A DNA stretch of 64,000 bases, taken from sequence record NC_054914.1; one strand, 5' to 3'. Numbering within the stretch: position 1 is the stretch's first letter; each line of letters starts with the position of its first letter. Source of the stretch: Escherichia phage vB_EcoM-fFiEco06. Below, in pieces: positions 1 to 45,820 of the stretch. Under the pieces are notes generated by a model. The model worked only from the letters and a program-made list of their open reading frames with translations. It did no database searches and had not been told where the DNA came from. The position numbers and the translations under genes were made by a program.

Positions 1-600
1 TCAAACTTAGTAGATTTAACACCAGAAGAGCACTATGTAGCTCATCAACTTTTAGTAAAAATTTATCCTTCTGAACCAAAATTAGTCTATGCTGCTAACA
101 TGATGACAGTTTCCACGAAATACGCTAAACGCAACAATAAAACTTTCGGTTGGATTCGTCGTAAACTCTGGGAAATAGAAAAGAACAAAGAATTCTCCCA
201 GGAGACACGAAAGAAAATGTCTGATGCAGTAGCTAATAAAGCAAGACTAACTTGTCCTCATTGCGGTAAGTCTGGATTAAGCGGGAATATGAATCGTTGG
301 CATTTTGATAACTGTCCAAATCACCCTAATCCTAAAGTTAGACCACCAATGTCTAAAGAACACAGAAATAATATCTCAAACGGGCTTAAAGCAATCGTTC
401 TTGAAGAAACATCCTGCGAATTCTGCGGAATGATAGGCAAGAAATGCGTTATCGCAGCGCATAGAAATTTCTGCAAGAAAAATCCAAATGGACGCAAGAA
501 AACTGAAAAGACTGGTACTTGCGTCCATTGTGGTAAAGTTACCACTTTCGGAAATTTATCAAGATGGCATAATGATAACTGTAAATATAAACCTAGCTAA
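1..600 (+). CDS. Homing-endonuclease-like protein, C-terminal DNA-binding region (5' end lies outside window)
   Basis: Frame 1 is open from position 1. Three repeats of CxxCGK...RWH(F/N)DNC zinc-finger-like motifs and two NUMOD3-like S-x-E-x-R-x-x-(M/I)S segments. Opposite strand to all neighbours and convergent with gene 46. Confidence 0.4.
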   Translation, partial: SNLVDLTPEEHYVAHQLLVKIYPSEPKLVYAANMMTVSTKYAKRNNKTFGWIRRKLWEIEKNKEFSQETRKKMSDAVANKARLTCPHCGKSGLSGNMNRWHFDNCPNHPNPKVRPPMSKEHRNNISNGLKAIVLEETSCEFCGMIGKKCVIAAHRNFCKKNPNGRKKTEKTGTCVHCGKVTTFGNLSRWHNDNCKYKPS

Positions 601-3904: not shown

Positions 3905-3922
3905 AAAGGGCCGAAGCCCTTT
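3905..3922 (-). terminator. UUCG-tetraloop hairpin downstream of a-gt (terminator or RNA stability element)
   Basis: AAAGGGC-UUCG-GCCCUUU on the minus-strand transcript, overlapping the a-gt stop; weak U-tract. Confidence 0.45.
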
Positions 3923-5123
3923 ATTTTGTAATAATGTCAAACTGTTCTTTAAAGCAGAAGCTTGAATCTTGATGCTGATACAAAAATTCATATGCTTTTT
4001 CTCGCTCACGGTCATAAAGAGCTCGGTCAGATGACAGTTCTTTAATACGTTCAAACGTTGATTCCATATCATTTTCATCAAACCAAATGATACCGCTATC
4101 ATGCGAGGTCAAAGGAGTATTATCAACACGGAATTTTAAATTTTCGCCAGTAGATTTCCAAAATACCGGAATTGTTCCACATGCACCAAGCTCGAGATGA
4201 GTATATTCTAAAGAACGTTGCAGATATTTTTTATCCAACTTACTCAACTGATAACCAAATCCGGATTTACTCATGCGTTCAAGCATTTCGCTATTTACAT
4301 AACGGTCAAGAATTTGCGTTGGCAAATTAGGAGCAATTTTAATTTGGTCTACTTGATGAAGACGATAATACTCGTATGGAATTCCTTTTTCTTTAATAGG
4401 AATGAACGCTGGAGAACGTTCCAGACCTTCCATAATAGTACTTAGTCCTGCAGGTTTAAGATGTTTTTCATGAAAATCAAACATCTGATAAAAACCTTTC
4501 CATGTAGTCGTACGACCAATCCAACGGTTGATATTCATGTTAATTTCAGAAACATCTTTCCAGTAGGTTGACCGAACCTTCGCAATATCCATAGGAGGCT
4601 GAAAGTTATATACTGTCGGTGCTTCTTCAATATCATCAAACAGAGAAACAGTTTCTGGATACCATTCTTTCATCAGAACTTTATTAAAATCACCATTATC
4701 AGAATGACTAAAAATAACATCAGCTCGACGAACAGTTTCTTCTAATCCCAAATTTCGACGCAAAGAAAGAGAAGAATGGTCATGTTGATAAACTACAACA
4801 CGAACAGAAGGTTTAATGTTATCAATAATTTTTTTATAGTTATTAATAGTGTCTTCTTCAACCGAAGTAGCAGGAACTGAATTGATAATTAGAATATCAC
4901 AATCATTTACCAGCTTAAGTGTTTTATCATATTCTTTTGCCAATAAAACCGGAATTGAAAATGATTTATAATCATGCGCGCAATTACGAGTAAATGATTT
5001 ATCTTTAGCATAAACCAAAGTTACTTCATGACCATTTTTAATAAACCAATCACGTTGCTCGAGTGAGAATTTTGTTACACCACAACCTTCAAGACCTCGA
5101 GCCATAAAAATACATACTTTCAT
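3921..5123 (-). CDS. a-gt: DNA alpha-glucosyltransferase
   Basis: 400 aa; near-identical to T4 alpha-gt as recalled (N-terminus FMARGLEGCGVTKFSLEQRDWFIKNGHEV). Confidence 0.88.
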   Translation of the reverse strand: MKVCIFMARGLEGCGVTKFSLEQRDWFIKNGHEVTLVYAKDKSFTRNCAHDYKSFSIPVLLAKEYDKTLKLVNDCDILIINSVPATSVEEDTINNYKKIIDNIKPSVRVVVYQHDHSSLSLRRNLGLEETVRRADVIFSHSDNGDFNKVLMKEWYPETVSLFDDIEEAPTVYNFQPPMDIAKVRSTYWKDVSEINMNINRWIGRTTTWKGFYQMFDFHEKHLKPAGLSTIMEGLERSPAFIPIKEKGIPYEYYRLHQVDQIKIAPNLPTQILDRYVNSEMLERMSKSGFGYQLSKLDKKYLQRSLEYTHLELGACGTIPVFWKSTGENLKFRVDNTPLTSHDSGIIWFDENDMESTFERIKELSSDRALYDREREKAYEFLYQHQDSSFCFKEQFDIITK

Positions 5124-5149
5124 TTAATATCCTCTTTGTTTTGGTTTAT

Positions 5150-5856: not shown

Positions 5857-6075
5857 TTATTTCTCTAATATAAAATAAAAATCATCATCTGTTAAATGAT
5901 ACCTGTAATTTAATTCTACACCATTAGATTTAAAAGCGGTATCATACGGATTTTCTGGATCAATATCAATGTCAAGAGCTAAAACTTCCCTGAGATACAT
6001 TTTAAGTAAATAGGGAATAGCTTCAACTTCAGGTATTTCTTCCAAGAATCCGGAGAGGTTAATCGTTAGCCTCAT
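5857..6075 (-). CDS. Hypothetical small protein
   Basis: 72 aa ORF immediately upstream of gene 55. Confidence 0.4.
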
Positions 6076-6616
6076 ATAAAAAATCCAAACTAGGAGAATC
6101 GTCTACAACACTTTTCTTTTCAGCCCCCGGTGTTCTATAGGTCGATTCTTCGTAATGCGTCATTTTATCGTAGATGTCTTGAATAAAAGTTTCATCTACT
6201 AACGCAACCATATCGTCGTCACGGCTGTCATAGACATTGTGAACGAAGTAACTGTATTTCTTTGCAACTTCCTTACGTTCTTTTTTAATACGTTGGACGA
6301 ATGCATTAAAACAAGCTTGAGTTATATATGCATGCGGGTTTTTATATTTCGTTTCATCAAAATTGTGAAGCCCCTTAATAGAAGCTTCTATACCATCTGC
6401 AATCATTTCTTGTTTCCAAGACTGGGTGTATCCTGAAAAGTTGAAACGTTTAGATAAGCCTTCTGCAATAAGCATAATGGCTAATCCGATAGTATCATTC
6501 TGACGAACTACTTTATTTGGGTCTTTATTATTTGCTAATTCTGTTTTCCAATCAATAATAGCTTGTAAAAGCTCTTTATTGTTTACGTAATTATATTTAG
6601 GCTTAGTTTCTGACAT
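6059..6616 (-). CDS. 55: Late-transcription sigma factor gp55
   Basis: Matches T4 gp55 ([23 protein letters not shown]...); start taken at the Met giving 185 aa. Confidence 0.88.
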
Positions 6617-6694
6617 TTTCACCTCTTAGCTCAATTCATAGATCTATTATATCATAATATTTGAAGATCTATCTTAAAGCATAGAGGATATCAG

Positions 6695-6964
6695 TTATCT
6701 AAGTAAACAGTATGCTTGGAACACTTTTTCCATCATCTTTTTAAATTCATGAATATCTATGTAATGACTAGTTAAATCAGCATGATATAAAAAGTCTAAA
6801 AACTTTTCATGTGTACTAACATATTCACTTTCATTTAATTCAGAAACATGGCTTTCCCAATATCCAACACCAGTCTTATTTGGGAAAAATGAAATTTTCA
6901 TGTATTTGTCAACATAGAAAATGCCATAATTTTCAATAGTAATAGAAATATTAATAAATTTCAT
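6695..6964 (-). CDS. Hypothetical protein
   Basis: 89 aa ORF in the 55 to nrdH interval. Confidence 0.4.
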   Translation of the reverse strand: MKFINISITIENYGIFYVDKYMKISFFPNKTGVGYWESHVSELNESEYVSTHEKFLDFLYHADLTSHYIDIHEFKKMMEKVFQAYCLLR

Positions 6965-8848: not shown

Positions 8849-9131
8849 GAGAAATAATTCCTTGATAAGCCCAGTATGGCGGGTTAACAGAATCCTCACC
8901 AGAGTTTTCTTCAGGAAAATAAACCTGGATAACAAATCCAGATGCATCAAAGGTAAAATAAACCGTAGGCAGTTCACCTAACAATTCGGCACGAGCATTA
9001 ATTTCTTCGAGATCTCGTTCACGTCCAGCCCAAAAACTAGGATTTAGACTACATTCGTAAAAATAATAGTCATTACCGAACATATCAAAACCCTTCCAAC
9101 TCTCTACCACATACCGCTCAAAACTAATCAT
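8820..9131 (-). CDS. Hypothetical protein
   Basis: 103 aa ORF. Confidence 0.4.
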   Translation of the reverse strand: MISFERYVVESWKGFDMFGNDYYFYECSLNPSFWAGRERDLEEINARAELLGELPTVYFTFDASGFVIQVYFPEENSGEDSVNPPYWAYQGIISRGTKLELKE

Positions 9132-9133
9132 AA

Positions 9134-9349
9134 TTAAGCCTTTTTATCAAGAACAGAATTCAGCTTGTTAGTAATTTTATCCAGACGCTCATTGAACTCG
9201 CTAGAAGATAAACCCTTTTCTGGAGAAATCAAACTAATCACGAAAAATATAGCAATAAAAGGAATAAGGAAAATAGCTCCAACTGCCATAAACAGAAAGA
9301 ATGTTACAGTTGTAAGAAAATCAGCTAAACCTTTACGAAATTTATACAT
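9134..9349 (-). CDS. Small membrane protein
   Basis: 71 aa with a hydrophobic stretch (FFLFMAVGAIFLIPFIAIFFVISL). Confidence 0.4.
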   Translation of the reverse strand: MYKFRKGLADFLTTVTFFLFMAVGAIFLIPFIAIFFVISLISPEKGLSSSEFNERLDKITNKLNSVLDKKA

Positions 9350-9464
9350 ATTTTACCCTTAATTGATTAACCAAGCATTGATAAGCACTAAACTATACTG
9401 CGAATAAAATTCTGGACCAAAATGAAAAATCATATCATTTATAGTATCCATAATGTAATTCAAT

Positions 9465-9935
9465 TTAATCATGTGTCCACACCCCATCGGTATTTGACCA
9501 AAGCCGCTGATTATCTGATCCTCTCCACAGCTTTTTGGTCGGAAGATTTTTCTCATACTTCCCATCAATAATAACATCAACATATTTAAGCATTTCTAGT
9601 TGTTTAATATCTTCAAACTTATATCCTGTCCACAACCAAATGCTTTTATTTGGATAAAGATTTTTTACTGTTTGAACAATGCAATGAATAACATCTCGAT
9701 TATCAGGATAGAGAGGGTCTCCTCCAGTTATAGTTAATCCTTCTATATAATCATTATTCAAACATTCAATTAATTGTTCTAGTGTTTCACCAGTGAATGG
9801 AATACCATTTCTAGCATTCCATGTTGATTTATTATAACACCCTTCGCATTTATGCAAACAACCTGTAACGAAAAGAACGACCCTGCAACCAGGGCCATTC
9901 ACAAAATCGCAAGGATAAAATCTATCATAATTCAT
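9465..9935 (-). CDS. nrdG: Anaerobic ribonucleotide reductase activating protein (radical SAM)
   Basis: 156 aa; CxxxCxxC cluster (CLHKCEGC). Confidence 0.9.
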   Translation of the reverse strand: MNYDRFYPCDFVNGPGCRVVLFVTGCLHKCEGCYNKSTWNARNGIPFTGETLEQLIECLNNDYIEGLTITGGDPLYPDNRDVIHCIVQTVKNLYPNKSIWLWTGYKFEDIKQLEMLKYVDVIIDGKYEKNLPTKKLWRGSDNQRLWSNTDGVWTHD

Positions 9936-11749
9936 TGATGCTTAACCCTATGCATGATTTCTTTATTTTTGCCGAGATTAAATCCGCGTTCGTTCGGATT
10001 TCCCAAATAACCACATGTTCTTCTTATTGTATTCATCTTTTTAGGATCAGTTTCTCCACAAATAGAACAAACAAATCCGTTTTCAGTAGGAGTCATTTCA
10101 TGGGTACTTCTGCATGTAAAACATTTATCCACTGGCATATTAACACCAAAATAATCTAAATGTTGTGCAGCATAATCCCATACGGCCTCAAGACCTTTCA
10201 AGTTATTTTTCATATCAGGAAGTTCAACATAAGAAATGTGACCACCTGTCGCAATGAAATGATATGGCGCTTCACGAGAAATCTTTTCAAACGGAGTAAT
10301 ATTTTCTTCTACTGAGACATGGAAACTGTTAGTGTACCAGCCTTTATCGGTAACATCTTTTACGCTTCCATATTTTTCTGTATCGAGTTTACAGAAGCGA
10401 TAACAAAGGTTTTCAGCAGGAGTCGAATATAAACTAAAAGCAAATCCGGTTCTTTCAGTCCACTGTTTAAGATGAGCATTCATTTTAGTTAAAATTTCTC
10501 GTCCAATATCACGACCGACAAGAATATTCAATTCGTGAATACCAATGTATCCTAAAGACACTGAACTTCTACCGTTTTTAAATAACTCAATTATATCGTC
10601 ATCAGGTTTAAGACGAACCCCAAATGCACCTTCTTGGTAAAGAATAGGAGCAACAGTAGCTTTAACTCCTTTTAAGGAACTAATTCTACACATCAAAGCT
10701 TCAAAACATAAATCCATTCGTTCATTGAACAATTCAACAAATTTCTGTTCATTGAACTGTGTTCCAATATAAGAATCTAACGCGATGCGAGGAAGATTCA
10801 GTGTTACAACACCAAGATTATTACGTCCATCAAGAATTTCATTACCAGTCGAATCTTTCCATACGCCCAAGAAACTACGGCAACCCATTGGAGAAACAGG
10901 AACAGATGAACCAGTGATAGCTTTATTGTTCTTAGCTGAAATAATATCAGGATACATCCTTTTGCTTGCACACTCTAGAGCAAGCTGCTTAATATCATAG
11001 TTCGGATCGTCTTTATAAAGATTAACACCTTCTTCAACGAACATAACAAGCTTAGGGAAAATAGGAGTTATTCCATCACGACCAAGACCTTTAATACGAT
11101 TTTTCAGAATTGCTTTCTGAATCATTCGTTCAGTCCAGTCAGTTCCTGTACCAAATGTAATTGTTACAAAAGGTGTTTGTCCGTTTGAACTAAAGAGAGT
11201 ATTTACTTCATATTCATAAGCTTGGAATGCATCGTATACATCTTTTTCTGTTTTAGATTGAGCATAATTCAACGCATCAGCGATTTGCCATTTTTCTGCA
11301 TCCTCAATATGTTTTGCATAGGTGCGTTTAACATAAGGAGAAAGTACTTTATCGACATTAGCAAATGTAGTTCCGCCATATTGGTGAGAAGCAACCTGTG
11401 CAGTAATTTGTGCCATAATTGCAGTAGCAACACCGATTGATTTAGGAGTTTCAATCTGTGCATTACCAAGCTTAAATCCGTTCTCAAGCATTCCTTTTAA
11501 ATCTACTAAACAACAATTAGTAAATGGAAGAGCAGGGGAATAATCAATATCGTGGAAATGGATAATTCCGCTTTCATGCGCTTTCATAATAAAAGACGGG
11601 ACCATATTTTTGGCAATGTGTTTAGACACAATACCAGCCATAAGGTCCCGTTGAGTTGGAAAAACACGAGAATCTTTATTAGCATTCTCGTTTAAAAGGT
11701 CTTTATTAGTTTTATGAATCAATCCTTCAATTTCTTTTTCAATTGTCAT
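9932..11749 (-). CDS. nrdD: Anaerobic ribonucleoside-triphosphate reductase (glycyl radical enzyme), uninterrupted
   Basis: 605 aa continuous ORF; C-terminal zinc ribbon CFTC...CSIC and glycyl-radical region RRTCGYLG. Confidence 0.92.
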   Translation of the reverse strand: MTIEKEIEGLIHKTNKDLLNENANKDSRVFPTQRDLMAGIVSKHIAKNMVPSFIMKAHESGIIHFHDIDYSPALPFTNCCLVDLKGMLENGFKLGNAQIETPKSIGVATAIMAQITAQVASHQYGGTTFANVDKVLSPYVKRTYAKHIEDAEKWQIADALNYAQSKTEKDVYDAFQAYEYEVNTLFSSNGQTPFVTITFGTGTDWTERMIQKAILKNRIKGLGRDGITPIFPKLVMFVEEGVNLYKDDPNYDIKQLALECASKRMYPDIISAKNNKAITGSSVPVSPMGCRSFLGVWKDSTGNEILDGRNNLGVVTLNLPRIALDSYIGTQFNEQKFVELFNERMDLCFEALMCRISSLKGVKATVAPILYQEGAFGVRLKPDDDIIELFKNGRSSVSLGYIGIHELNILVGRDIGREILTKMNAHLKQWTERTGFAFSLYSTPAENLCYRFCKLDTEKYGSVKDVTDKGWYTNSFHVSVEENITPFEKISREAPYHFIATGGHISYVELPDMKNNLKGLEAVWDYAAQHLDYFGVNMPVDKCFTCRSTHEMTPTENGFVCSICGETDPKKMNTIRRTCGYLGNPNERGFNLGKNKEIMHRVKHQ

Positions 11750-12219
11750 TTTAAACTCTTTCTAAGCTGCTTCTTAAATGAAGCTATTAACTGTGTTTTG
11801 GTGTCAGATTCATTATATTCAAATCCTCTTTGAAGCATCTCGGCCATCATTTCCTCTTTTCCTAAACGAGAAAATTCCTTTGATTTATCTCCAACAAAGT
11901 TAGGGTGAATATTATTTTGGGTGTAATCGGATTTTAAATAAGTAAGTAAATTTTCTAACCATTCAAGATAATCAACACCTTGTCCCTTTAAGCCAGAACG
12001 ATTAAATTTATGCTTCATTTGACCTTCTGCAGCATTGCAGAGATTACAAAGCAATCCACGTATCTTTCCTGCTTTTGGTCCATTTAATTCATGGTCATGG
12101 TCGAGGTGATTAGCTTGAACATCAGGATTTAGTTCTCGTTGGCAAATTAAGCATTTACCGTTTTGTGCATTATAAAATTTTTGTTTTTCTTCTTTGTATA
12201 ATTTGCCAGTCAATAACAT
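11746..12219 (-). CDS. 49: Endonuclease VII (Holliday junction resolvase)
   Basis: 157 aa; CLICQ...HLDHDHELNG...CNLCN zinc/H-N-H motif. Confidence 0.9.
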   Translation of the reverse strand: MLLTGKLYKEEKQKFYNAQNGKCLICQRELNPDVQANHLDHDHELNGPKAGKIRGLLCNLCNAAEGQMKHKFNRSGLKGQGVDYLEWLENLLTYLKSDYTQNNIHPNFVGDKSKEFSRLGKEEMMAEMLQRGFEYNESDTKTQLIASFKKQLRKSLK

Positions 12220-12225
12220 AATAAA

Positions 12226-12250
12226 ACCCTTACCTTAAATAGATAAGGGT
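12226..12250 (-). promoter_or_regulatory. Hairpin sequestering the gene 49 ribosome-binding site
   Basis: Inverted repeat ACCCTTA ... TAAGGGT ends about 6 nt before the gene 49 AUG; the 3' arm contains AAGGG. Confidence 0.45.
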
Positions 12251-12260
12251 ATTTATTATT

Positions 12261-12316
12261 TTTAAGTATTGTAAAACATTCGATGCAATCGTTTATACTG
12301 TCGAATCATCTTTTTA
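12261..12316. repeat. Direct repeat copy 1 (about 55 bp)
   Basis: TTTAAGTATTGTAAAACATTCGATGCAATCGTTTATACTGTCGAATC, about 85% identical to the copy at 12474-12530. Confidence 0.6.
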
Positions 12317-12438
12317 GTAGGACGAGAATAGGTTCCTACGCAAGTGGTCATATGAGGGTCCGTAGAATGTCCTTTAATAAAAAGTTTCCAAACCTTACCG
12401 CCATTTAACTTTTCAGTATAAACCAATTCGGTTTTCAT
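12262..12438 (-). CDS. Small ORF (58 aa) sharing its C-terminus with the downstream-encoded 167 aa protein
   Basis: Hand translation MKTELVYTEKLNGG...IRQYKRLHRMFYNT; the last 14 aa and 3' flank repeat those of ORF 12475..12978. Confidence 0.3.
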   Translation of the reverse strand: MKTELVYTEKLNGGKVWKLFIKGHSTDPHMTTCVGTYSRPTKKMIRQYKRLHRMFYNT

Positions 12439-12473
12439 TAAAATGTCCTGTCAGAAAAAGAATTTTGAGTTTT

Positions 12474-12530
12474 TTCAAGTATTGTAAAACATTTGATGCA
12501 ATCGCTTATATTGCCGAATCTTTTGGTCAG
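12474..12530. repeat. Direct repeat copy 2 (about 55 bp)
   Basis: TTCAAGTATTGTAAAACATTTGATGCAATCGCTTATATTGCCGAATC; covers the 3' end of ORF 12475..12978. Confidence 0.6.
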
Positions 12531-12978
12531 AAAAAGAAATTTGAGTTTCAAGCCATTCAATGTACTCTGCGGCAGCTTGCATCAGGTTACCTTCATAGCC
12601 ATCGTTATTTTCTTGCGCAGCTAATTTAGCTAATGCGTATGAAATACGTTCACCTTGAAAAGCGGCTTTAGGCTTCTGAACATCTTGGCTAGTTCTCTCT
12701 ACAACTTCTTCAATTTCGCCATTTTCAACGGATTCAGTATTCCACAAACACCAGTATGTAATTGGCTTATCATAGATGTTAATAATCTTTCCGTCGGAAA
12801 GTTCAATTTCAATAATTCCAGTATCAGGTTCTATATCATCTTCGCATTCTTTTGCAAGTTCACGAACTTTAAAGACAGTACCTGCACTAAGTTCCGGCCA
12901 GTAATTACATAGCCCTGTATCAACACGATTAATTCTAAACCACTTATCTACTGTAATCATGTCCCATCTCCATATCAA
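12475..12978 (-). CDS. pin: Hypothetical protein, possible Lon protease inhibitor PinA homolog
   Basis: Position immediately upstream of gene 49 as in T4; the second Met would give 161 aa. Identity not verified. Confidence 0.4.
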   Translation of the reverse strand: MIWRWDMITVDKWFRINRVDTGLCNYWPELSAGTVFKVRELAKECEDDIEPDTGIIEIELSDGKIINIYDKPITYWCLWNTESVENGEIEEVVERTSQDVQKPKAAFQGERISYALAKLAAQENNDGYEGNLMQAAAEYIEWLETQISFSDQKIRQYKRLHQMFYNT

Positions 12979-19786: not shown

Positions 19787-20773
19787 TTATTTCAGAAGAG
19801 TAACCTCAGCGATTTCTTCCCAACCGTTTTTGTCGGTCATAATAAAGTCAGCAAGATAAAGAGCAGTACGCAGTGAAACATTGCGTAAACGATTAACATT
19901 AACTTTCATCCATGATAATGCTTTATAAGTTTCTTCATCAGAAAGACCGCGCTTTTGCATCATGTCGGTTGAAAGAATAACATCTTCAACCCTGACCATA
20001 ATTTCTTCATTAGTGTGAACACCCAAATCTAAATAAACTGAGCGGGACACTAATGCTTGTAAATGTGGAGCAAGTTTAGTACCACGGTCTAATTCGCGGT
20101 CAATATCAACGTTTGTGATAAAAACAATCGTTCCTTTAAATTCAAACTCACGCTCAATGCCTTTTTCTTCTAAGTAAGAAGATGCAGTGCTCCAGCAGAC
20201 TTTACGGGTCTCTCCAGTGTCCAGAGCAGCTTTCAGAAGATTAAGAATGTCCATATCAGAGAAAACATCCACATCATCAATCAAAAGGACAGAATTCTCT
20301 TCACGATTATTCCAAAGTTGTTCATAAAGACCGATACCGGAGATTTTACCGTTAATGCTTTTATATTCAATGTATCCATTATCATTTGCTTTATTCAAAG
20401 CTTTATCTAAAGAATACGTTTTACCAATACCCGCCGCACCAGAGATAATTAATGAACGAATGTTTCCGTTAATAATACCATTCGTCATCATTCCCATAAC
20501 ATTAAATCTTTTATTAATGCGGGTTTTCATATCTTCATATGATTCTTTAACTTCTTCAACTTTTACACCATCATATGAAATGTCTGATTTGTAAACCCAA
20601 ACACCGCGACGCTTACCGTCAATTTCAACAAAAACTTTACCATCTCCTTGTGCATCTACCGGAGCATTATCTGGGAACCATTCACCTAAGAGCTCAAAAG
20701 TTCCAGAGATTTCTTTACCGAAGTAGATACCCTTATTGATAGTTACAGTTTTCATTTTATTCTCCAATCTCAC
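19787..20773 (-). CDS. P-loop ATPase (AAA-like) with N-terminal extra domain
   Basis: 328 aa; Walker A GAAGIGKT, Walker B VLLIDDVD. Confidence 0.6.
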   Translation of the reverse strand: MRLENKMKTVTINKGIYFGKEISGTFELLGEWFPDNAPVDAQGDGKVFVEIDGKRRGVWVYKSDISYDGVKVEEVKESYEDMKTRINKRFNVMGMMTNGIINGNIRSLIISGAAGIGKTYSLDKALNKANDNGYIEYKSINGKISGIGLYEQLWNNREENSVLLIDDVDVFSDMDILNLLKAALDTGETRKVCWSTASSYLEEKGIEREFEFKGTIVFITNVDIDRELDRGTKLAPHLQALVSRSVYLDLGVHTNEEIMVRVEDVILSTDMMQKRGLSDEETYKALSWMKVNVNRLRNVSLRTALYLADFIMTDKNGWEEIAEVTLLK

Positions 20774-20789
20774 ATTTGTTTTGATAGGG

Positions 20790-20821
20790 TAATAGTATCA
20801 CACTACTACCCTTCTGTAAAC
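20790..20821 (-). promoter_or_regulatory. T4-type early promoter
   Basis: Minus strand GTTTACAGAAGGGTAGTAGTGTGATACTATTACCCT. Confidence 0.55.
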
Positions 20822-20824
20822 AAT

Positions 20825-21088
20825 TTATTTTAACGTTCGCCAAATTTTTACTGCTTCACGGCGAGATACTTCTACAGCTCCAAGTTCTACAGCTTTTTGG
20901 CGTCGGCGAGCGTGTAAGTCATAATGTTTAATGCGTTTATCTTGAAACCAAGAACGTTTCATTCCTATTGCTTCTGCCATTTCATGAAGCTCTTCAATAT
21001 CTCCATCAGTGAACATATGACAATTTTTAGTTGGATGACCGCGAAGTTTCCATCCATGATTCATTAAAACATCTACGTAAACTGTCAT
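20825..21088 (-). CDS. Small conserved protein (resembles a bacterial DUF4031-type domain)
   Basis: 87 aa; HMFTDG...EELHEMAEAIGMKRSWFQ...HYDL motif. Family assignment from memory. Confidence 0.4.
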   Translation of the reverse strand: MTVYVDVLMNHGWKLRGHPTKNCHMFTDGDIEELHEMAEAIGMKRSWFQDKRIKHYDLHARRRQKAVELGAVEVSRREAVKIWRTLK

Positions 21089-21303
21089 TGATTCTTCTCC
21101 AAATAAGTTTCGATAATTTTCTGAGCGAGATAAACTGCATTATCTTCAGTTGCATCTTCTAAGAAACTTTCAAAACACTCTGAAATTTCTTCTGTATCAA
21201 TCAACTTTTTTACTTCAATTGGTGTAATTTTCATTTTGTTTTTCCGTTTAAGTGTTTGTTTTGATAGTTGTATAGTACCATAAAGCTTTATGCTTGTAAA
21301 CAA
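21085..21303 (-). CDS. Hypothetical small protein
   Basis: 72 aa; the 5' end overlaps a predicted promoter, so the start may be internal. Confidence 0.35.
   Translation of the reverse strand: MFTSIKLYGTIQLSKQTLKRKNKMKITPIEVKKLIDTEEISECFESFLEDATEDNAVYLAQKIIETYLEKNQ
21270..21301 (-). promoter_or_regulatory. T4-type early promoter
   Basis: Minus strand GTTTACAAGCATAAAGCTTTATGGTACTATAC; adjacent to the terminator at 21318-21349. Confidence 0.55.
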
Positions 21304-21351: not shown

Positions 21352-22365
21352 TCATTTATAATAACTTCGGTGGTTTTCAAGATAAACCCTCTCAAGGAAG
21401 TCATCCCAAAAACCCATGTCTACTTTTTGCTGCATACCGTTCTTAGAAGCTTCAGTAGATGCTGCTTCTACTTGATCGACCACATCTTCCAAAAACTCTT
21501 GAACCGTTTTAAATGGATGTTTACCCAACTTCACGTCGAGAATAAATGGAGCATCTTGGAGTGGATAAACCAAGTCACCAGTTTTGTAAATTTCCAATAG
21601 TTGGAGTCCACCACGGCAAGCATGACTCAGAGCTTTCCAGTCAATACCTTCATTGGCTTCGGCCTTACGAGCACGTTCACCGTATTCAGCATCTAATTTG
21701 TTCAGTGACTGCTTAAGCTCAATAAGAGAAAGCGTTGTCTGATATTTACGACCCAACACTGTGTAGAACGTCTGTGGGCCTGTTTTCTCATGATTATGGA
21801 ACACCCATTCACAGAATTCGTTTTCTGGAAGACGATGCTTAATATCTTCAACTTTAGTACGACGCTGCTTAATAGAACCATCTTCTTGGTAATCAACCCA
21901 TTGCTCAGGGATTTGATTAACTACTTTCAATACATCACGTAATGCAGCCAAACGAGAACCCTTAACGCCGTATTTAGAAGCTTGCTTACGGACATATCCT
22001 AAATAGGATTTCATGTTAGTCGTATAAAAACGAGAACGGTTGTCTTGAATAAACTTCCACACATCAGGCAAATCAGATTTAACCACTAGTTCAGGTGGAG
22101 TGTGAAGCATATCTAACGCTACAGTTTCACCATCTGCTGCTAATTTAAAGAAATATTTAAGACTGTATAGTTCATGGTCAATATCATCTTTAGTGTTTTT
22201 AGATGATGTGTTGTTAGTGTTTTTACTCATGTGCTCTTTAACATTTCCGATAAGAATATCACGAGCAGGAGGAACAAAGATTTCTTTAAAATCTACATCA
22301 GATTCTGGGGTAGAAGTTCCATAAAGATGACTACCAAAATAGCTTTTCATTACTGTTTTCATCAT
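21352..22365 (-). CDS. Nucleotidyltransferase-fold protein (Pol-beta superfamily-like)
   Basis: 337 aa; N-terminal GSHLYGTSTPESDVD matches the hG[GS]x(9-13)DxD pattern. Confidence 0.5.
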   Translation of the reverse strand: MMKTVMKSYFGSHLYGTSTPESDVDFKEIFVPPARDILIGNVKEHMSKNTNNTSSKNTKDDIDHELYSLKYFFKLAADGETVALDMLHTPPELVVKSDLPDVWKFIQDNRSRFYTTNMKSYLGYVRKQASKYGVKGSRLAALRDVLKVVNQIPEQWVDYQEDGSIKQRRTKVEDIKHRLPENEFCEWVFHNHEKTGPQTFYTVLGRKYQTTLSLIELKQSLNKLDAEYGERARKAEANEGIDWKALSHACRGGLQLLEIYKTGDLVYPLQDAPFILDVKLGKHPFKTVQEFLEDVVDQVEAASTEASKNGMQQKVDMGFWDDFLERVYLENHRSYYK

Positions 22366-22823
22366 TCAGCCTTATATTCAATAACAGGACATACTTTAGC
22401 TTTACGAGCTTTTAAAAATTCAACGATAATCGATTTCTTGGGTTGAATAGGAGGTAAACCTTTATACGCCCTATCAATATTTTCTACGTGTAAAGCATAA
22501 TCCTTTTTCCATTTATAATCTTTATATTTTTCACGCAGTTGTGCAGGAATAACAAATGAACCGATAATAAGTAAAACAAGCAAAATGGCAAGTATAAATG
22601 CTGATGGAATAAGAGTCCATAAACTACCAAAAATAAGCCATTTCTGTATGATTTCTGCGCAGATGATAGTTAGACCTACGAGTATAGTACATCCGAAAAA
22701 AGAAACGAAAAATGTAGGGATAACAATAGACCAAAAGTATGCGCACAGCGTCTTAGGTCGTTGCCATTCATCGTTAAACAATTTGAATAATTTATAGTGC
22801 CAAGAGTTTTCATTAATAATCAT
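22362..22823 (-). CDS. Membrane protein
   Basis: 153 aa with 2-3 hydrophobic helices. Confidence 0.5.
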   Translation of the reverse strand: MIINENSWHYKLFKLFNDEWQRPKTLCAYFWSIVIPTFFVSFFGCTILVGLTIICAEIIQKWLIFGSLWTLIPSAFILAILLVLLIIGSFVIPAQLREKYKDYKWKKDYALHVENIDRAYKGLPPIQPKKSIIVEFLKARKAKVCPVIEYKAE

Positions 22824-22825
22824 AA

Positions 22826-23347
22826 TTATCCTTTCATTGAAGGTGTAACAGTTGTTAAATACTTAATCATAGCTTCAGCTTCTGATTTTGATAATGAAAT
22901 TTCTTCATTGTTTTGACGAATAGAAATAAAATCCGGATGACGGTCACCACCAGCTTTTAAAACACACATATAAGTATCAGTTTCATCTTCAATATCTGAA
23001 ATGATTGAAGCAGTTCCACATGAATGCGGTTTTTGATAAATCAATACAGCTTTTCTTCCGCCATTTGACTGTTCATAAACTTTTAATACATCAAACAAAT
23101 CACTTCTTTTATCAATAGCTAAAATGTTATTTTCATCTTCAATGTTAAATCCTTCGGATACTTCATAAAGTGTCACCCATAAATCGCCAATATCAATAAC
23201 AGCGTTCACTTTTCCATGACTTTCAAGAGCATGACAAATTTTCTTGATTTCGTCATAACTCATTTTAATAATATCATCTCCTTGAATAAGAAAGATGTCA
23301 TTTTTAAATTCAACACGAATTAAACCACTTCCACTTGAAATAAACAT
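22826..23347 (-). CDS. Hypothetical protein, paralog of 23354..23911
   Basis: 173 aa; C-terminal SKSEAEAMIKYLTTVTPSM resembles TKDEAIALKTYLDSVIPTM of the neighbour. Confidence 0.5.
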   Translation of the reverse strand: MFISSGSGLIRVEFKNDIFLIQGDDIIKMSYDEIKKICHALESHGKVNAVIDIGDLWVTLYEVSEGFNIEDENNILAIDKRSDLFDVLKVYEQSNGGRKAVLIYQKPHSCGTASIISDIEDETDTYMCVLKAGGDRHPDFISIRQNNEEISLSKSEAEAMIKYLTTVTPSMKG

Positions 23348-25827: not shown

Positions 25828-25869
25828 ATATACCCCTTTAGTTAGATAAACCTATTTATAACTTTTGCA

Positions 25870-31651: not shown

Positions 31652-31673
31652 TTTATCCCTCCAAGTAACTGTG

Positions 31674-35906: not shown

Positions 35907-35912
35907 AGAATG

Positions 35913-36386
35913 TTATTTGATTTGTTTAGCAGACCAAATGCGGTCTTTAATAATTTTTTGGATGTCTTCAACATACTCAAGAGAGTGAACATGTGGGTTA
36001 TCTTTGAAACTATAAGCACGAGCTAGCTTTTGGCCTTCAGTTTTGATTACTAAAAGCTCTTTAAGGATAGCTTCATATTTGGAGATAATTCCTTTAACAA
36101 TATTTTTCTCTTGTGTGACTTTAGGATCTGCTTTAGGAGCAGGTTTACCTGAAGCCTTTGCAAAAGCAGCTCCAGTAGCAACTAAACTTTTCCAAGCCAT
36201 ACTAACTGCATTCCCTGTAAATCCTTCGGCTTTCATATCACGAGCAAATTGGAATCGTGATTCATCGGAAGCATCTTTATAGGAATATTTACCCGCGGCA
36301 ATGGCAGCTTTTGCAACAGCTTGAATTTCAGTGCTAGATGCTTCATTTAACACCGCTTCATTTAAAAATTGAGTATATGATTTCAT
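35913..36386 (-). CDS. Internal-protein-like late gene (capsid-targeting N-terminus)
   Basis: 157 aa Ala/Lys-rich; N-terminus MKSYTQFLNE resembles the T4 capsid-targeting sequence MKTYQEFIAE; TATAAATA late promoter upstream. Confidence 0.5.
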   Translation of the reverse strand: MKSYTQFLNEAVLNEASSTEIQAVAKAAIAAGKYSYKDASDESRFQFARDMKAEGFTGNAVSMAWKSLVATGAAFAKASGKPAPKADPKVTQEKNIVKGIISKYEAILKELLVIKTEGQKLARAYSFKDNPHVHSLEYVEDIQKIIKDRIWSAKQIK

Positions 36387-36422
36387 CTTATTTCCTGTTT
36401 TAATTCGGGGTTTTAATATACT

Positions 36423-36430
36423 TATTTATA
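36423..36430 (-). promoter_or_regulatory. Late promoter TATAAATA upstream of the internal-protein-like gene
   Basis: Minus strand AGTATAAATAAG about 37 nt upstream of the ATG at 36386. Confidence 0.6.
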
Positions 36431-36460
36431 CTAAAAAGCCCCAACCTTTCGGTCGGGGCT
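36431..36460 (-). terminator. Rho-independent terminator (copy 2) ending the tRNA/stable-RNA transcription unit
   Basis: AGCCCCGACC-GAAAG-GUUGGGGCU followed by UUUUUAG; about 30 nt shared with copy 1. Confidence 0.7.
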
Positions 36461-36776
36461 AAGCCTTGCGGCAACCTTGTCGGGGTTCCACCTGCTAAGG
36501 CAAGTGTTTGTACGAAACGCCGGGATTCGAACCCGGTTATTAAGCAGTTGACGCTACTCAATATTTTTAAAAGGCCATATCTCGACCATATCCGAACGTT
36601 CCGTCAAAAACGCTACTCGGCTTACGGCAAAGATATTTCCTCGAATCGATAATTCGGTGCGCCGTTTCTGCTGTGATATAAGGGGACATTAACAAAACAT
36701 AAAGATTTATTAATACCAGTCCTTAAACAGGGAACATCAGTCCGACGACTTGCCGGTAGCGACCCGGCTTCTTGTC
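36461..36776 (-). ncRNA. Stable RNA region (T4 species 1/2, rnaC/rnaD-like)
   Basis: Non-coding stretch between tRNA-Arg and the terminator, containing a tRNA-like T-arm (GGGTTCGAATCCCGG); position as for the T4 stable RNAs. Confidence 0.4.
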
Positions 36777-36852
36777 TGGTCGAGGCAGTAGGGATCGAAC
36801 CTACGACCCAGGACTTAGAAGGTCCTTGCTCTTCCTTCTGAGCTATGCCTCG
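36777..36852 (-). tRNA. tRNA-Arg (anticodon UCU)
   Basis: Hand-folded cloverleaf: acceptor CGAGGCA/UGCCUCG, anticodon loop CUUCUAA, T-arm GGTTCGATCC, encoded CCA. Confidence 0.8.
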
Positions 36853-36856
36853 TATT

Positions 36857-36931
36857 TGGCGGACGTGATAGGATTCGAACCTATAACCAATCGCTTAACA
36901 GGCGATCGCTCTGCCATTGAGCTACACATCC
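36857..36931 (-). tRNA. tRNA-Asn (anticodon GUU)
   Basis: Acceptor GGATGTG/CACGTCC, anticodon stem ATCGC/GCGAT with loop CTGTTAA, T-loop TTCGAAT, CCA. Confidence 0.7.
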
Positions 36932-36935
36932 AAAT

Positions 36936-37022
36936 TGGTGGGGAGTGGTGGAGTCGAACCACCCGAGTCGCAATGACAATGAATTTACAGTCCACACCGC
37001 TACCTCTACGGGATAACTCCCC
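36936..37022 (-). tRNA. tRNA-Tyr (anticodon GUA), long variable arm
   Basis: 87 nt; acceptor GGGGAGT/ACTCCCC, anticodon loop CTGTAAA, T-arm GGTGGTTCGACTCCACC, CCA. Confidence 0.65.
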
Positions 37023-37031
37023 AAATTAATT

Positions 37032-37106
37032 TGGTGGCCCTGGGTGGAATTGAACCACCATCTGGCGATTATGAGTCGCTTGCTTGAACCTTCCAGCTAC
37101 AGGGCC
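37032..37106 (-). tRNA. tRNA-Ile/Met (anticodon CAU)
   Basis: Acceptor GGCCCTG/CAGGGCC, anticodon loop CTCATAA, CCA. Confidence 0.75.
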
Positions 37107-37107
37107 T

Positions 37108-37183
37108 TGGTGCTGATTGACGGAATCGAACCGCCGACCTTCTCATTACAAGTGAGTTGCTCTACCTACTGAGCTAAATCAGC
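37108..37183 (-). tRNA. tRNA-Thr (anticodon UGU)
   Basis: Acceptor GCTGATT/AATCAGC, anticodon loop CTTGTAA, T-arm GGTTCGATTCC, CCA. Confidence 0.8.
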
Positions 37184-37188
37184 AAAAC

Positions 37189-37278
37189 TGGCGGAGGCGA
37201 TAGGATTTGAACCTATGAGTCGCCGGAGCGACTGCCGGTTTTCAAGACCGGTGCATTAAACCACTCTGCCACGCCTCC
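37189..37278 (-). tRNA. tRNA-Ser (anticodon UGA), long variable arm
   Basis: 90 nt; acceptor GGAGGCG/CGCCTCC, anticodon loop CTTGAAA. Confidence 0.8.
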
Positions 37279-37280
37279 AG

Positions 37281-37354
37281 TCTCCGTGGCAGGATTTGAA
37301 CCTACGACATTCTGCTCCCAAAGCAGACGCTCTACCAAACTGAGCTACACGGAG
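37281..37354 (-). tRNA. tRNA-Pro (anticodon UGG), CCA not encoded
   Basis: Acceptor CTCCGTG/CACGGAG, anticodon loop TTTGGGA; separated from tRNA-Ser by 2 nt. Confidence 0.8.
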
Positions 37355-37364
37355 TAAATTAAAT

Positions 37365-37438
<74 letters not shown>

Positions 37439-37443
37439 AAATT

Positions 37444-37530
37444 TGGTGCGAGAAGTGGGACTCGAACCCACAAGGAAATCATTCCGCAGCATTTTAAGTG
37501 CTGTGCCTTTACCAATTTGGCCATTCTCGC
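37444..37530 (-). tRNA. tRNA-Leu (anticodon UAA), long variable arm
   Basis: 87 nt; matches T4 tRNA-Leu as recalled (GCGAGAATGGTCAAATTGG...). Confidence 0.85.
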
Positions 37531-37531
37531 G

Positions 37532-37604
37532 CTGGGAATAAAGGACTCGAACCTTTGCATCCTGGAATCAAAATCCAGTGCCTTACCAACTTGGCTAATT
37601 CCCA
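37532..37604 (-). tRNA. tRNA-Gln (anticodon UUG), CCA not encoded
   Basis: TGGGAATTAGCCAAGTTGGTAAGGCACTGGATTTTGATTCCAGG...; abuts tRNA-Leu with a 1-nt spacer. Confidence 0.85.
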
Positions 37605-38600: not shown

Positions 38601-38633
38601 GTAATAGTATCACTACCCTATCTAAAAGTAAAC
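38601..38633 (-). promoter_or_regulatory. T4-type early promoter with 9-bp inverted repeat around the -10
   Basis: GATAGGGTA ... TACCCTATC flanks the -10 ATACTATTA. Confidence 0.55.
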
Positions 38634-38867
38634 TTATTTTTTACGAAAAATTGATTTATTTTCTGCTGCCCATTTTTCAATAACTGCAGCAGGACCAGTA
38701 ACAACAATTTTATCACCGTAATCTTCTGCGGCGAGTTGACCGAAATTATCTAATGCATCACGAAGAACTCCATGAGGCATTTCACCCATTTTATCTTTCT
38801 TGCCAGTGTAAATAAACTCAACTTTTACATCAGCAGTTTCAGCAATAAATTCTTGGTAAGTTTTCAT
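38634..38867 (-). CDS. Internal protein (ip-like) with canonical capsid-targeting sequence
   Basis: Start taken at the second Met: MKTYQEFIAE matches the T4 capsid-targeting sequence as recalled; own early promoter. Confidence 0.55.
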   Translation of the reverse strand: MKTYQEFIAETADVKVEFIYTGKKDKMGEMPHGVLRDALDNFGQLAAEDYGDKIVVTGPAAVIEKWAAENKSIFRKK

Positions 38868-38898
38868 TTTGATTTCCATTTGGTTTTGTTTTGATAGG

Positions 38899-38931
38899 GT
38901 AATAGTATCACAACTAAAACCCTATGTAAAC
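38899..38931 (-). promoter_or_regulatory. T4-type early promoter with inverted repeat around the -10
   Basis: ATAGGGT ... ACCCTAT flanks the -10; drives the ip-like gene at 38634-38867. Confidence 0.55.
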
Positions 38932-38943
38932 AACTTTGTGAAA

Positions 38944-39201
38944 TTATTTTAAATCTTCTAATCGTTTCTTCATCTTAGAGCCATTTTTAGCAATTTCTCC
39001 TGCATCGGAGCATAATGCTAAAAGTGCTTTAACTTTAGTTTGGTCTCCTTTAAAAGATGAAGGATCGACCGCAGCAGCAAGTTCTTTAATACGAGAGAAA
39101 AGACGCTCAGCTTCAGCTAAAGCCATTCCAAGCTTTACTTCCATACCGTGGGAAGATTCAGTGATAGTAGTTTTTGTAGCAAACTCTTTGAAAGTTTTCA
39201 T
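38944..39201 (-). CDS. Internal protein (ip-like) with capsid-targeting-like N-terminus
   Basis: 85 aa; MKTFKEFATKTTITE with an I-x-E cleavage-type motif; own early promoter. Confidence 0.5.
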   Translation of the reverse strand: MKTFKEFATKTTITESSHGMEVKLGMALAEAERLFSRIKELAAAVDPSSFKGDQTKVKALLALCSDAGEIAKNGSKMKKRLEDLK

Positions 39202-44997: not shown

Positions 44998-45526
44998 TAT
45001 ACTTCCAATGAGCGCTGATTTAGGAGAATCCATGGAAGGTTCTTCTATCGACGTCACCTTTACCGCTCAATTAGAAACAGGTGAAACGTTAGTATCTATA
45101 AATATAACTAGTTACGAAGAAACTCCTGGGGTTTTAGTAGAAGAAAATCGCTTATACGGAACATATGAATCTGTGTTTGGATTTGGAAATGACGCGTTGA
45201 AATATCGTTTAGGCGATGAATTTAAAACTGCTGCTTCATGGGAAGAACTTCCTACTGATTCTGATACTCAGTTGTATTTATGGAAAGCTCCTCAAAACCT
45301 CCAGAAGACATTCACTTACGAAGTAACATTAATATATGACTACCAAGAACAAAGTGAATCTGGAGGTTCTGGCAGTAATTCTAGGTCATCTTCTGATACT
45401 ACTGAACCGACAGATCCTCCTGCTCCAGTAAGAAAAACTCTCGTTAAAAATTATACTAAAACTATAGTTGGAAATTGGAGTCGTTGGGCTAATAAATTAA
45501 GAAGCTATGTGTATGAGAGGTCATAG
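44969..45526 (+). CDS. 5.1: Hypothetical late protein (5.1 position)
   Basis: 185 aa between genes 5 and 5.4. Confidence 0.5.
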
Positions 45527-45820
45527 ATGTCAGGATTAAGTTATGATAAATGTGTTACTGCTGGTCATGAAGCATGGCCTCCAACAGTTGTGAATGCTAC
45601 ACAAAGTAAAGTATTCACTGGAGGAATTGCTGTTCTCGTAGCAGGTGATCCAATTACAGAACATACAGAAATTAAAAAGCCATATGAAACACATGGCGGA
45701 GTGACACAACCCAGAACTTCTAAGGTATATGTCACTGGAAAGAAAGCTGTTCAAATGGCTGATCCAATATCATGCGGTGATACTGTGGCTCAGGCATCAT
45801 CTAAAGTATTCATTAAATAG
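45527..45820 (+). CDS. 5.4: PAAR-repeat spike tip protein gp5.4
   Basis: 97 aa; position after gene 5. Confidence 0.8.

Follow-up and report, generated by a model that had tools for sequence, protein, structure and literature searches.

The anaerobic ribonucleotide-reductase genes of Escherichia phage vB_EcoM-fFiEco06 lie, together with the positions that correspond to mobile elements in T4, within the stretch of 64,000 nucleotides analyzed here (sequence record NC_054914.1), which whole stretch we refer to as the window. The features on which the analysis is based are the following:

9932–11749, minus strand: nrdD, for the large subunit of the class III (anaerobic) ribonucleotide reductase (RNR), a single uninterrupted ORF of 605 aa (1818 nt)
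9465–9935, minus strand: nrdG, for the radical-SAM activase of NrdD (Pfam Fer4_12, E 2e-48, plus Radical_SAM; annotated nrdG in MG781191)
11192–11221, minus strand: empty intron insertion site, with the 30 bp that correspond to the I-TevII site (junctions mapped against T4 and JB75)
9915–9935, minus strand: empty mobC slot; a 20-bp stretch here flanks mobC on both sides in T4
5115–5138, minus strand: empty mobB slot, the a-gt.2/a-gt intergenic region, 24 bp versus the 861-bp mobB block of T4
22362–23347, minus strand: the mobD position, with two ORFs, one for a membrane protein (153 aa) and one for a y05I-like protein (173 aa) (blastn break against T4)
36857–37022, minus strand: tRNA-Asn (36857–36931) and tRNA-Tyr (36936–37022) at the segB position of T4 (ARAGORN and Rfam; blastn break against T4)
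45523–45528, plus strand: empty segC/5.3 slot, where genes 5.1 and 5.4 adjoin and T4 has about 557 bp extra (segC plus 5.3)
1–600, plus strand: the 3′ 199 codons of a Mob-family HNH homing-endonuclease gene that is truncated where the window begins (HNH endonuclease in MG781191)

That nrdD is a single 605-aa ORF, as a preliminary description of this DNA had stated, is borne out by the ORF list, by the full-length match of the product to the NRDD domain (PF13597, residues 21–604, E 2e-170), and by the colinearity with the spliced T4 NrdD, the two genes being of equal length and 97.1% identical in nucleotides, with differences at 53 nt and in 3 of the 605 amino acids. The Gly_radical domain (PF01228) matches at residues 481–586, and an RTCGY motif stands near the C-terminus. 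The stop of nrdD and the start of nrdG share four nucleotides (ATGA at 9932–9935), the ATG of nrdG lying inside the ATGA that ends nrdD, through which overlap the translation of nrdG might be coupled to that of nrdD. With the domain, the glycyl-radical motif, and the adjacent activase all present, NrdD and NrdG constitute an intact class III anaerobic RNR pair.

In T4, nrdD is annotated as a two-piece join, interrupted after CDS nt 538 by an intron of 1033 nt that holds I-TevII, which arrangement the preliminary description had given correctly. The equivalent insertion point in the window lies between 11212 and 11211, likewise after CDS nt 538, within a 30-bp sequence that reads GCTTATGAAT up to that point and ATGAAGTAAATACTCTCTTT beyond it. 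In blastn the window was contiguous across the insertion point (11211/11214) against the T4 exons and also against those of JB75. A search for group I introns (Rfam RF00028) recovered none in the whole window at the gathering score, and none at E ≤ 1 between 9000 and 12600, which second and permissive search was carried out because the JB75 intron had fallen below the gathering-score search when the T4 and JB75 loci were scanned. As positive controls, the T4 intron scored 105 bits and the JB75 intron, recovered by a focused search, 72 bits. I-TevII, used as a tblastn query, found no match in the window.

The six T4 slots that fall within the window span—mobB, mobC, the nrdD intron with I-TevII, mobD, segB, and segC—were found to be either empty or filled by other genes, and the six corresponding T4 endonuclease proteins produced no tblastn match in the window except at 1–285. 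Between nrdG and nrdD, T4 holds a mobC block of 602 bp according to blastn; here, as the preliminary description had noted, the two genes overlap directly. Its observation that no mobB-sized ORF lies between a-gt (3921–5123) and gene 55 (6059–6616) also holds, the largest ORF in that interval being of 105 aa and T2 being contiguous with the window across the mobB point. The absence of mobD and segC goes beyond the elements considered there. At the mobD position, where MobD gave no tblastn match (22362–23347), the two ORFs matched Pfam T4_y05I_N and T4_y05I_C along with phrog_944 and phrog_1502, and T2 has the same two-ORF arrangement; the idea of unrecognized endonucleases was rejected, since these ORFs belong to the membrane-protein and y05I families and none of the ORFs in the replaced blocks matched a family of endonucleases. 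The alignment that had been proposed with T4, T2, and T6 resulted in precise junctions against T4, contiguity with T2 at all six slots, and, for T6, a comparison over the 13 kb around nrdD. At the sensitivity of blastn, tblastn, and Rfam, which searches define the depth of this survey, we saw no intron or endonuclease remnants at the junctions.

The place of segB is taken by tRNA-Asn and tRNA-Tyr, in keeping with the earlier statement that the tRNA cluster lacks that gene; the cluster (36777–37604) consists of ten tRNAs with spacers of 0–9 nt, and the Arg-Asn-Tyr-Met arrangement was found in 374 phage records. The phages T2L, RB1, and RB3, which do not have segB, are cut by SegB in tRNA-Asn, and the preferred SegB site of 27 bp has been mapped in the tRNA-Asn of T2L (PMC2330249). 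The 3′ part of the window tRNA-Asn is GGTTCGAATCCTATCACGTCCGCCAA, within which the SegB-site motif GGTTCRANTCC, then CCAR, occurs as GGTTCGAATCC and CCAA; moreover, this tRNA-Asn is identical to that of T2 at 80 of the 80 positions compared (the T2 sequence being that of record PV648364). Among the slots, the SegB target in tRNA-Asn is accordingly the only one that we would call a likely live homing site, and a co-infecting phage carrying SegB would probably cost the window phage its tRNA region. Beside the cluster, a 157-aa ORF (35913–36386) was considered as an unrecognized endonuclease and rejected, since it belongs instead to a family of unknown function.

The preliminary description had further claimed that T4-type mobile elements are absent across the early region, which statement does not hold for the whole of it. 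The gene at 1–600 is free-standing, located between genes 45.2 and 46, and antisense to its neighbors. Its full protein, as in MG781191, matched phrog_655 (E 9e-69) and only weakly the Pfam HNH domain (E 0.007). The catalytic N-terminus is encoded outside the window; in the N-terminal domain the identity was 44% with MobB, 53% with MobD, and 37% with MobC. The gene was found full-length in 58 phage records and is absent at this position from T4 and T2. By both this homology and this patchy presence, the product is a free-standing homing endonuclease of the Mob family with an HNH domain.

The window shares 99.98% identity over 64 kb, and 100% over 4 kb, with a Tequatrovirus, Escherichia phage vB_EcoM-fHoEco02 (MG781191); relative to that record it carries a 10-bp insertion, past which (from window position 25832 on) the coordinates shift. 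The phages fHoEco02, JB75, and PM136 are all filed under one species, Tequatrovirus ecombl75. The td intron with I-TevI is present in MG781191, outside the span of the window.

We took the distribution of the nrdD alleles from a phage collection, an IMG/VR scan with NrdD having returned 21 loci, too few for frequencies. A contiguous intronless nrdD junction was found in 570–601 phage records, and the 120-nt sequence at the insertion site was at least 95% identical in 584. Full-length T4 elements occurred in 25 records for the intron, 32 for mobC, 26 for mobB, 47 for mobD, and 126 for segB; all these record counts include GenBank and RefSeq duplicates and many T4 laboratory stocks, so that the proportions are rough. 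Four states exist at the one nrdD position: empty, occupied by the T4-type intron, occupied by a JB75-type intron, or—as in 215Ecol030PP—occupied by a JB75-type intron whose endonuclease ORF has been deleted, with 479 nt left. The JB75-type nrdD intron is commoner in isolates than the T4 type.

We next considered the exons around the insertion site. The fused exon junction of T4 equals the string GCTTATGAGTATGAAGTGAACACGTTATTC, which we take to be the defined 30-bp I-TevII site, with the cut presumably at +13/+15. The window site, of the same type as in T2 (GCTTATGAATATGAAGTAAATACTCTCTTTAGTTCAAACG) and with the same sequence as T2 over 40 nt, is identical to the T4 junction at 23 of the 30 positions; the remaining seven differences are all synonymous and lie between −2 and +20, six of them at +8 to +20, and these mismatches form the densest cluster between the window nrdD and that of T4 (permutation p ~0.0009). 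The codons of the window site (GAA…GTA AAT ACT CTC TTT) are those common to intronless phages: GAA at −2 occurred in 21 of the 21 intronless loci examined, including phages only 77–79% identical in NrdD, and the window bases at +11, +14, and +15 were common to nearly all of those loci. Compared with the spliced T4 junction over 120 nt, no intronless record exceeded 95.0% identity.

The seven T4-type bases were never present unless the intron was. G8, a non-T4 phage with the T4-type intron, has bases of the T4 type at −2 through +20 and of the window type farther out. Both intron types, that of T4 and that of JB75, are accompanied by GAG at −2, which codon, as read from the sequence, completes the pairing of the exon AUGAGU with the intron guide GCUCAU. 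In every carrier examined, each intron type was associated with an exon patch of its own; beyond the record counts, the survey covered a sample of 24 loci. Such an intron-linked patch, consisting of GAG at −2 and donor-type bases at +8 to +20, is found in T4, G8, and JB75 and is absent from the window, whose site differs from the JB75-type flank at 4 of 30 positions as against the 7 of 30 for the T4 type. Since the window site bears neither the T4-type nor the JB75-type patch, we see no sign there of an intron once present and then lost.

Homing-endonuclease cassettes cut the empty allele during co-infection and are copied in by double-strand-break repair; spreading in this manner, they are patchy in presence, and, as we read these data, the lineage of the window phage has not been invaded at the six slots. 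That the lineage was never invaded is a proposition which assumes that precise intron loss leaves the co-converted exon patch behind, and that patch would disappear if an intronless phage later served as donor in a conversion. The opposite history—an intron or free-standing endonuclease genes once carried and subsequently removed by precise deletion, in a cycle of invasion, degeneration, and loss—draws on the occurrence of a degenerating state in nature, namely the 215Ecol030PP intron with its ORF deleted, and on the relatives of the same species in which these slots are filled, by an intron or by endonuclease genes. We nevertheless consider such a loss very improbable: the searches by blastn, tblastn, and Rfam left no junction with a remnant, each of the seven positions of the T4 patch has the base common to intronless phages, the exon flanks depart from the JB75 patch at four positions, the layout of the junctions is the same as in T2, and the allele is placed among the intronless ones in the sample examined. 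As to an artefact of assembly or annotation, by which an intron would have been collapsed or removed to leave an uninterrupted ORF, that notion can hardly be entertained, because an independently deposited genome has the same sequence at the identities given above and the same contiguous junction recurs in hundreds of independent genomes; no point in its support was found.

A more serious competitor to the reading of an allele simply not invaded is that the nrdD allele of the window phage, and of essentially all its intronless relatives, resists I-TevII, with the seven synonymous differences blocking the cut and thereby explaining the rarity of the T4-type intron. The concentration of six of the seven differences around the presumed cut would fit this explanation, as would the significance of that cluster, the occurrence of the T4-type site in no intronless record, and the occurrence of the full-length T4-type intron in no more than those 25 records, among which T4 stocks are numerous. 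Against it, the window-type bases are also those of the outgroup phages, which places the changes on the lineage with the intron rather than on an intronless one escaping from it; in G8, moreover, intron and patch move together, which is what obligatory co-conversion from the insertion site to the cleavage site predicts. On the outgroup bases and the G8 patch we reject the synonymous cluster as an escape change in the window lineage. Furthermore, GIY-YIG enzymes are relaxed in their cutting specificity (PMC2330249). We therefore hold resistance of the allele to be unlikely, albeit deserving of consideration. If the differences did block I-TevII, natural phages would in practice be protected against the classical T4 nrdD intron, and the JB75-type intron, with exon flanks nearer to those of the window, would then be the element in a position to invade the window allele, which pair of consequences we rate as unlikely.

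The preliminary description had also proposed that the vacant junctions define potential homing sites, and for SegB that suggestion stands on the identity of tRNA-Asn with that of T2. For I-TevII, the status of the nrdD site as a homing site is doubtful, the match being limited to the 23 of 30 positions of the presumed target. Its characterization of the phage as a mobile-element-poor relative of T4 holds in comparison with T4 itself, whose six elements are missing here; it does not hold as a distinguishing trait, the unoccupied condition being that of the majority and equal to that of T2, nor does it mean freedom from such elements, given the HNH gene in the window and the td intron in MG781191. 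With high confidence we regard this DNA as an early region of the usual Tequatrovirus kind, in its unoccupied (T2-type) allelic state.

An intron-free nrdD with empty slots is ordinary among the relatives of T4 and is already known, the patchy distribution of T4 introns and homing endonucleases and the outlier status of T4 having been on record since the late 1980s. With its 15 endonucleases, T4 stands out as the outlier, most of its relatives having few; nrdD and nrdG are recurrent targets of seg and mob genes, and the targets of MobB, MobC, and MobD are given as unknown (PMC2988022, the latter in its Table 1). The window adds one further T2-type genome, which addition matters little, with the population-scale tally of nrdD-site states as a modest by-product. 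For annotators, the T4 mob, seg, and intron features are not to be expected here; and the nrdD, nrdG/nrdD, and 45.2/46 junctions are useful as recombination-boundary markers among very close relatives.

Among the named phages, T2 (PV648364) is like the window in possessing an uninterrupted 605-aa nrdD that overlaps nrdG, in lacking mobB, mobC, mobD, segB, and segC, and in a Met-Tyr-Asn-Arg tRNA block that is 99.4% identical. Between 46.1 and 46, T2 carries a gene for a 204-aa endonuclease that is missing from the window, and it does not have the HNH gene that the window has between 45.2 and 46; its tRNA cluster contains an ORF and no tRNA-Thr. T4 has an identical gene order, but within this span it carries the nrdD intron together with five endonuclease genes that are free-standing, and its nrdG is only 85.8% identical to that of the window. 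JB75 differs in having a group I intron of 1045 nt at the identical position of nrdD, which intron is 66% identical in nucleotides to that of T4 and contains an ORF whose product is 56% identical in amino acids to I-TevII. In the mobC slot, OMNI12, a member of the same species, has a 279-aa HNH gene, PM136 a 276-aa GIY-YIG gene, and T6 a 244-aa endonuclease gene; in JB75, OMNI12, and PM136 the flanking DNA is 97.5–99.4% identical to that of the window. Sandegren, Nord, and Sjoberg reportedly described, in 2005, a replacement between SegH and MobC at nrdG–nrdD, with alternative endonuclease genes across the T4-like phages (as cited in PMC2988022); the window contains the same nrdG–nrdD slot as that replacement system, here without an occupant.

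With the Tequatrovirus Escherichia phage vB_EcoM-fHoEco02 (MG781191), identity was 100% over the 4 kb around nrdD, and the 64-kb window as a whole was 99.98% identical to that genome, with five mismatches (6143, 6637, 17940, 49389, and 63446) and an insertion of 10 bp near 25832, between rI.1 and tk; the window is therefore a near-identical yet distinct sequence or version with respect to MG781191, whose annotation served as a guide only. The comparator genomes were T4 (AF158101), T2 (PV648364), and T6 (NC_054907). The following features are considered:

1-600, plus strand: 3' part (truncated by the window edge) of a Mob-family HNH endonuclease gene that lies between 45.2 and 46 and runs antisense to the early genes around it
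9465-9935: nrdG, overlapping nrdD by ATGA; mobC occupies this spot in T4
9932-11749, minus strand: nrdD, a single 605-aa ORF that covers the NRDD domain in full and has a glycyl-radical domain as well
22362-23347: mobD position, occupied by genes for a membrane protein and a y05I-like protein
36777-37604: cluster of ten tRNA genes, spaced by 0-9 nt
36936-37022, minus strand: tRNA-Tyr, present in this phage without segB
45523-45528: place of the segC/5.3 block, missing in the window and present in T4

The preliminary description had contrasted an intact nrdD with the interrupted gene of T4, and both statements were borne out: the ORF, its domains, and its colinearity with the spliced T4 NrdD (equal length; 3 residues and 53 nucleotides differ) define one uninterrupted gene, whereas T4 nrdD is a two-piece join enclosing I-TevII, the 1033-nt intron following CDS nucleotide 538. 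In the alignment with T4 the window runs continuously over that point, at 11211/11214; and Rfam, which as positive controls found the T4 intron at 105 bits and that of phage JB75 at 72 bits, returned no group I intron in the whole window at the gathering score or in 9000-12600 at E<=1.

Regarding the free-standing endonucleases, the claimed absences of mobC between nrdG and nrdD, of a mobB-sized ORF between a-gt and gene 55, and of segB from the tRNA cluster likewise held, the largest ORF between a-gt and 55 being of 105 aa, the mobB block measuring 861 bp in T4 versus 24 bp in the window, and tRNA-Asn and tRNA-Tyr lying at the segB position of T4. The mobD and segC slots, which had gone unmentioned, were empty of those genes as well, and tblastn over the window with MobB, MobC, MobD, I-TevII, SegB, and SegC gave no match outside 1-285. 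Four blocks without T4 counterpart (6690-6949, 12310-12471, 20768-21260, and 35908-36427) contain ORFs of the DUF7200, DUF7279 (lying between gene 49 and pin), and DUF4031 families, the last accompanied by an ORF of 49 aa, together with a function-unknown 157-aa ORF (phrog_2280) that adjoins the tRNA cluster; no endonuclease likeness was found among them.

In the course of these comparisons we observed that UPWr_E4 (PP418987, locus L006, 2947-4334), otherwise 99.3% identical to the window, carries a tandem duplication of ~695 bp that takes in the DUF7279 ORF and gene 49, which encodes endonuclease VII. At 36400-36773 (minus strand), the small MG781191 CDSs HE2_134 and HE2_135 align at 89-91% with the T4/T2 region of the stable RNAs rnaC and rnaD, and probably specify RNAs, not proteins; no Rfam model matched that stretch. 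At 31655-31662 and 38614-39166, the internal-head-protein genes ipII and ipIII are missing from between denV and e, and a different pair of small internal-protein genes, with the annotations ip5 and ip6, stands in place of ipI.

The broader assertion of an early region without T4-type mobile elements did not survive, in view of the HNH gene at 1-600. Its full protein has 238 aa, matches phrog_655 (E 9e-69), and in its N-terminal domain is 44% identical to MobB, 53% to MobD, and 37% to MobC. Present at full length in 58 phage records, RB51 among them, this gene was not at the corresponding spot in T4 or T2; in T2 and T6 another endonuclease gene lies instead between 46.1 and 46. MG781191 carries, in addition, a td intron with I-TevI beyond the span of the window, so that the phage is element-poor compared with T4 but not element-free.

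The insertion site itself reads GCTTATGAAT/ATGAAGTAAATACTCTCTTT in the window (the slash marking the insertion point) and GCTTATGAGT/ATGAAGTGAACACGTTATTC in the fused exons of T4, with differences at 7 of 30 positions, all synonymous, forming the densest mismatch cluster of nrdD (permutation p about 0.0009). The T2 site equals the window's exactly over 40 nt; the window version of the 120-nt junction recurs at >=95% identity in 584 records, and no intronless match to the T4 spliced junction exceeds 95.0% over 120 nt. One reading, of some novelty, would be that natural intronless nrdD alleles resist I-TevII and that a second intron type is the spreading one. That type occurs in JB75 (MH355584, L004 2413-3459), which belongs to the same species as the window phage, with flanks 97.5-99.4% identical: a 1045-nt group I intron at a position identical to T4's, with 66% nucleotide identity to the T4 intron and a GIY-YIG ORF 56% identical in amino acids to I-TevII; full-length copies occur in 44 records, more than the 25 of the T4 type, many of which are T4 stocks.

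The outgroups, for their part, favour simple co-conversion over resistance: GAA at -2 (relative to the insertion point) was present in 21/21 intronless loci examined, including phages whose NrdD is only 77-79% identical, and the window bases at +11, +14, and +15 are common to nearly all of them, which distribution makes the T4-type bases the derived or imported state. The flanks of G8, a non-T4 phage with a T4-type intron, point the same way, being T4-type from -2 to +20 and window-type beyond. The T4-type bases travel with the intron, as obligatory co-conversion would have it from the insertion site to the cleavage site, which we take to lie at +13/+15. Moreover, GCUCAU in both intron types pairs, as read from the sequence, with exon AUGAGU, and with AUGAAU, as in the window, an A.C mismatch would adjoin the splice site, a second reason for the difference at -2. 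On sequence comparison neither the T4-type nor the JB75-type exon patch is in the window, and hence nothing suggests an intron once present and then lost.

Relatives fill these slots differently. 215Ecol030PP (L032, about 761-1239) has a 479-nt JB75-type derivative with the endonuclease ORF deleted, and the nrdG-nrdD slot holds a 279-aa HNH gene in OMNI12 and a 276-aa GIY-YIG gene, unrelated to the former, in PM136. The first 7-12 codons of nrdG are duplicated at the start of T4 mobC (L003 13500-13540) and of the OMNI12 gene (L005 1926-1965), both of which thus reuse the overlapping nrdG start; in PM136 (L007 1956-2020) nrdD is recoded over its final 20 codons, beside the GIY-YIG gene, a change that may mark the target of that enzyme. 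Between the window and T4, nrdG and downstream ORFs (9149-9935 versus L003 12129-12917) are only 85.8% identical, the adjoining nrdD 97%, a divergent patch next to T4 mobC and consistent with sequence brought in together with that endonuclease gene.

As for potential homing sites, that claim stands, with probability, for SegB only, and is doubtful for I-TevII. T2L, RB1, and RB3 lack segB, and their tRNA-Asn gene holds the preferred SegB cut; the recognition site measures 27 bp (GGTTCRANTCC plus a distal CCAR), segB inheritance in T4 x T2L crosses being nearly 100% (PMC2330249). The window tRNA-Asn contains GGTTCGAATCC...CCAA and is identical to that of the sequenced T2 record at 80/80 compared positions, and is thus probably a potential SegB homing site; the MobB, MobC, and MobD targets are entered as unknown in Table 1 of PMC2988022. 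T6 escapes Septu defence through SegB-driven tRNA-Tyr amplification, according to a 2026 paper (PMC13096335), which route would be lacking in a segB-less phage.

The empty state is not unusual at all. Counted by records in the phage collection, full-length copies number 32 for mobC, 26 for mobB, 47 for mobD, and 126 for segB; the contiguous intronless nrdD junction occurs in 570-601 records and the Arg-Asn-Tyr-Met tRNA arrangement in 374. T2 aligns contiguously with the window over 6/6 slots, while T6 lacks both the nrdD intron and mobB, possesses segB, and has nrdG and nrdD separated by a gene for a 244-aa endonuclease. The observation of the preliminary description is thus confirmed and its interpretation supported in part only; the feature is ordinary, such cases being already described in the T-even literature, where T4, with its 15 endonucleases, counts as the outlier against mostly endonuclease-poor relatives, and nrdD and nrdG are repeated targets of seg and mob genes (PMC2988022). 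The details of the slots in the relatives fit known homing-endonuclease biology, and the window is the unfilled allele at sites whose polymorphism is well known.
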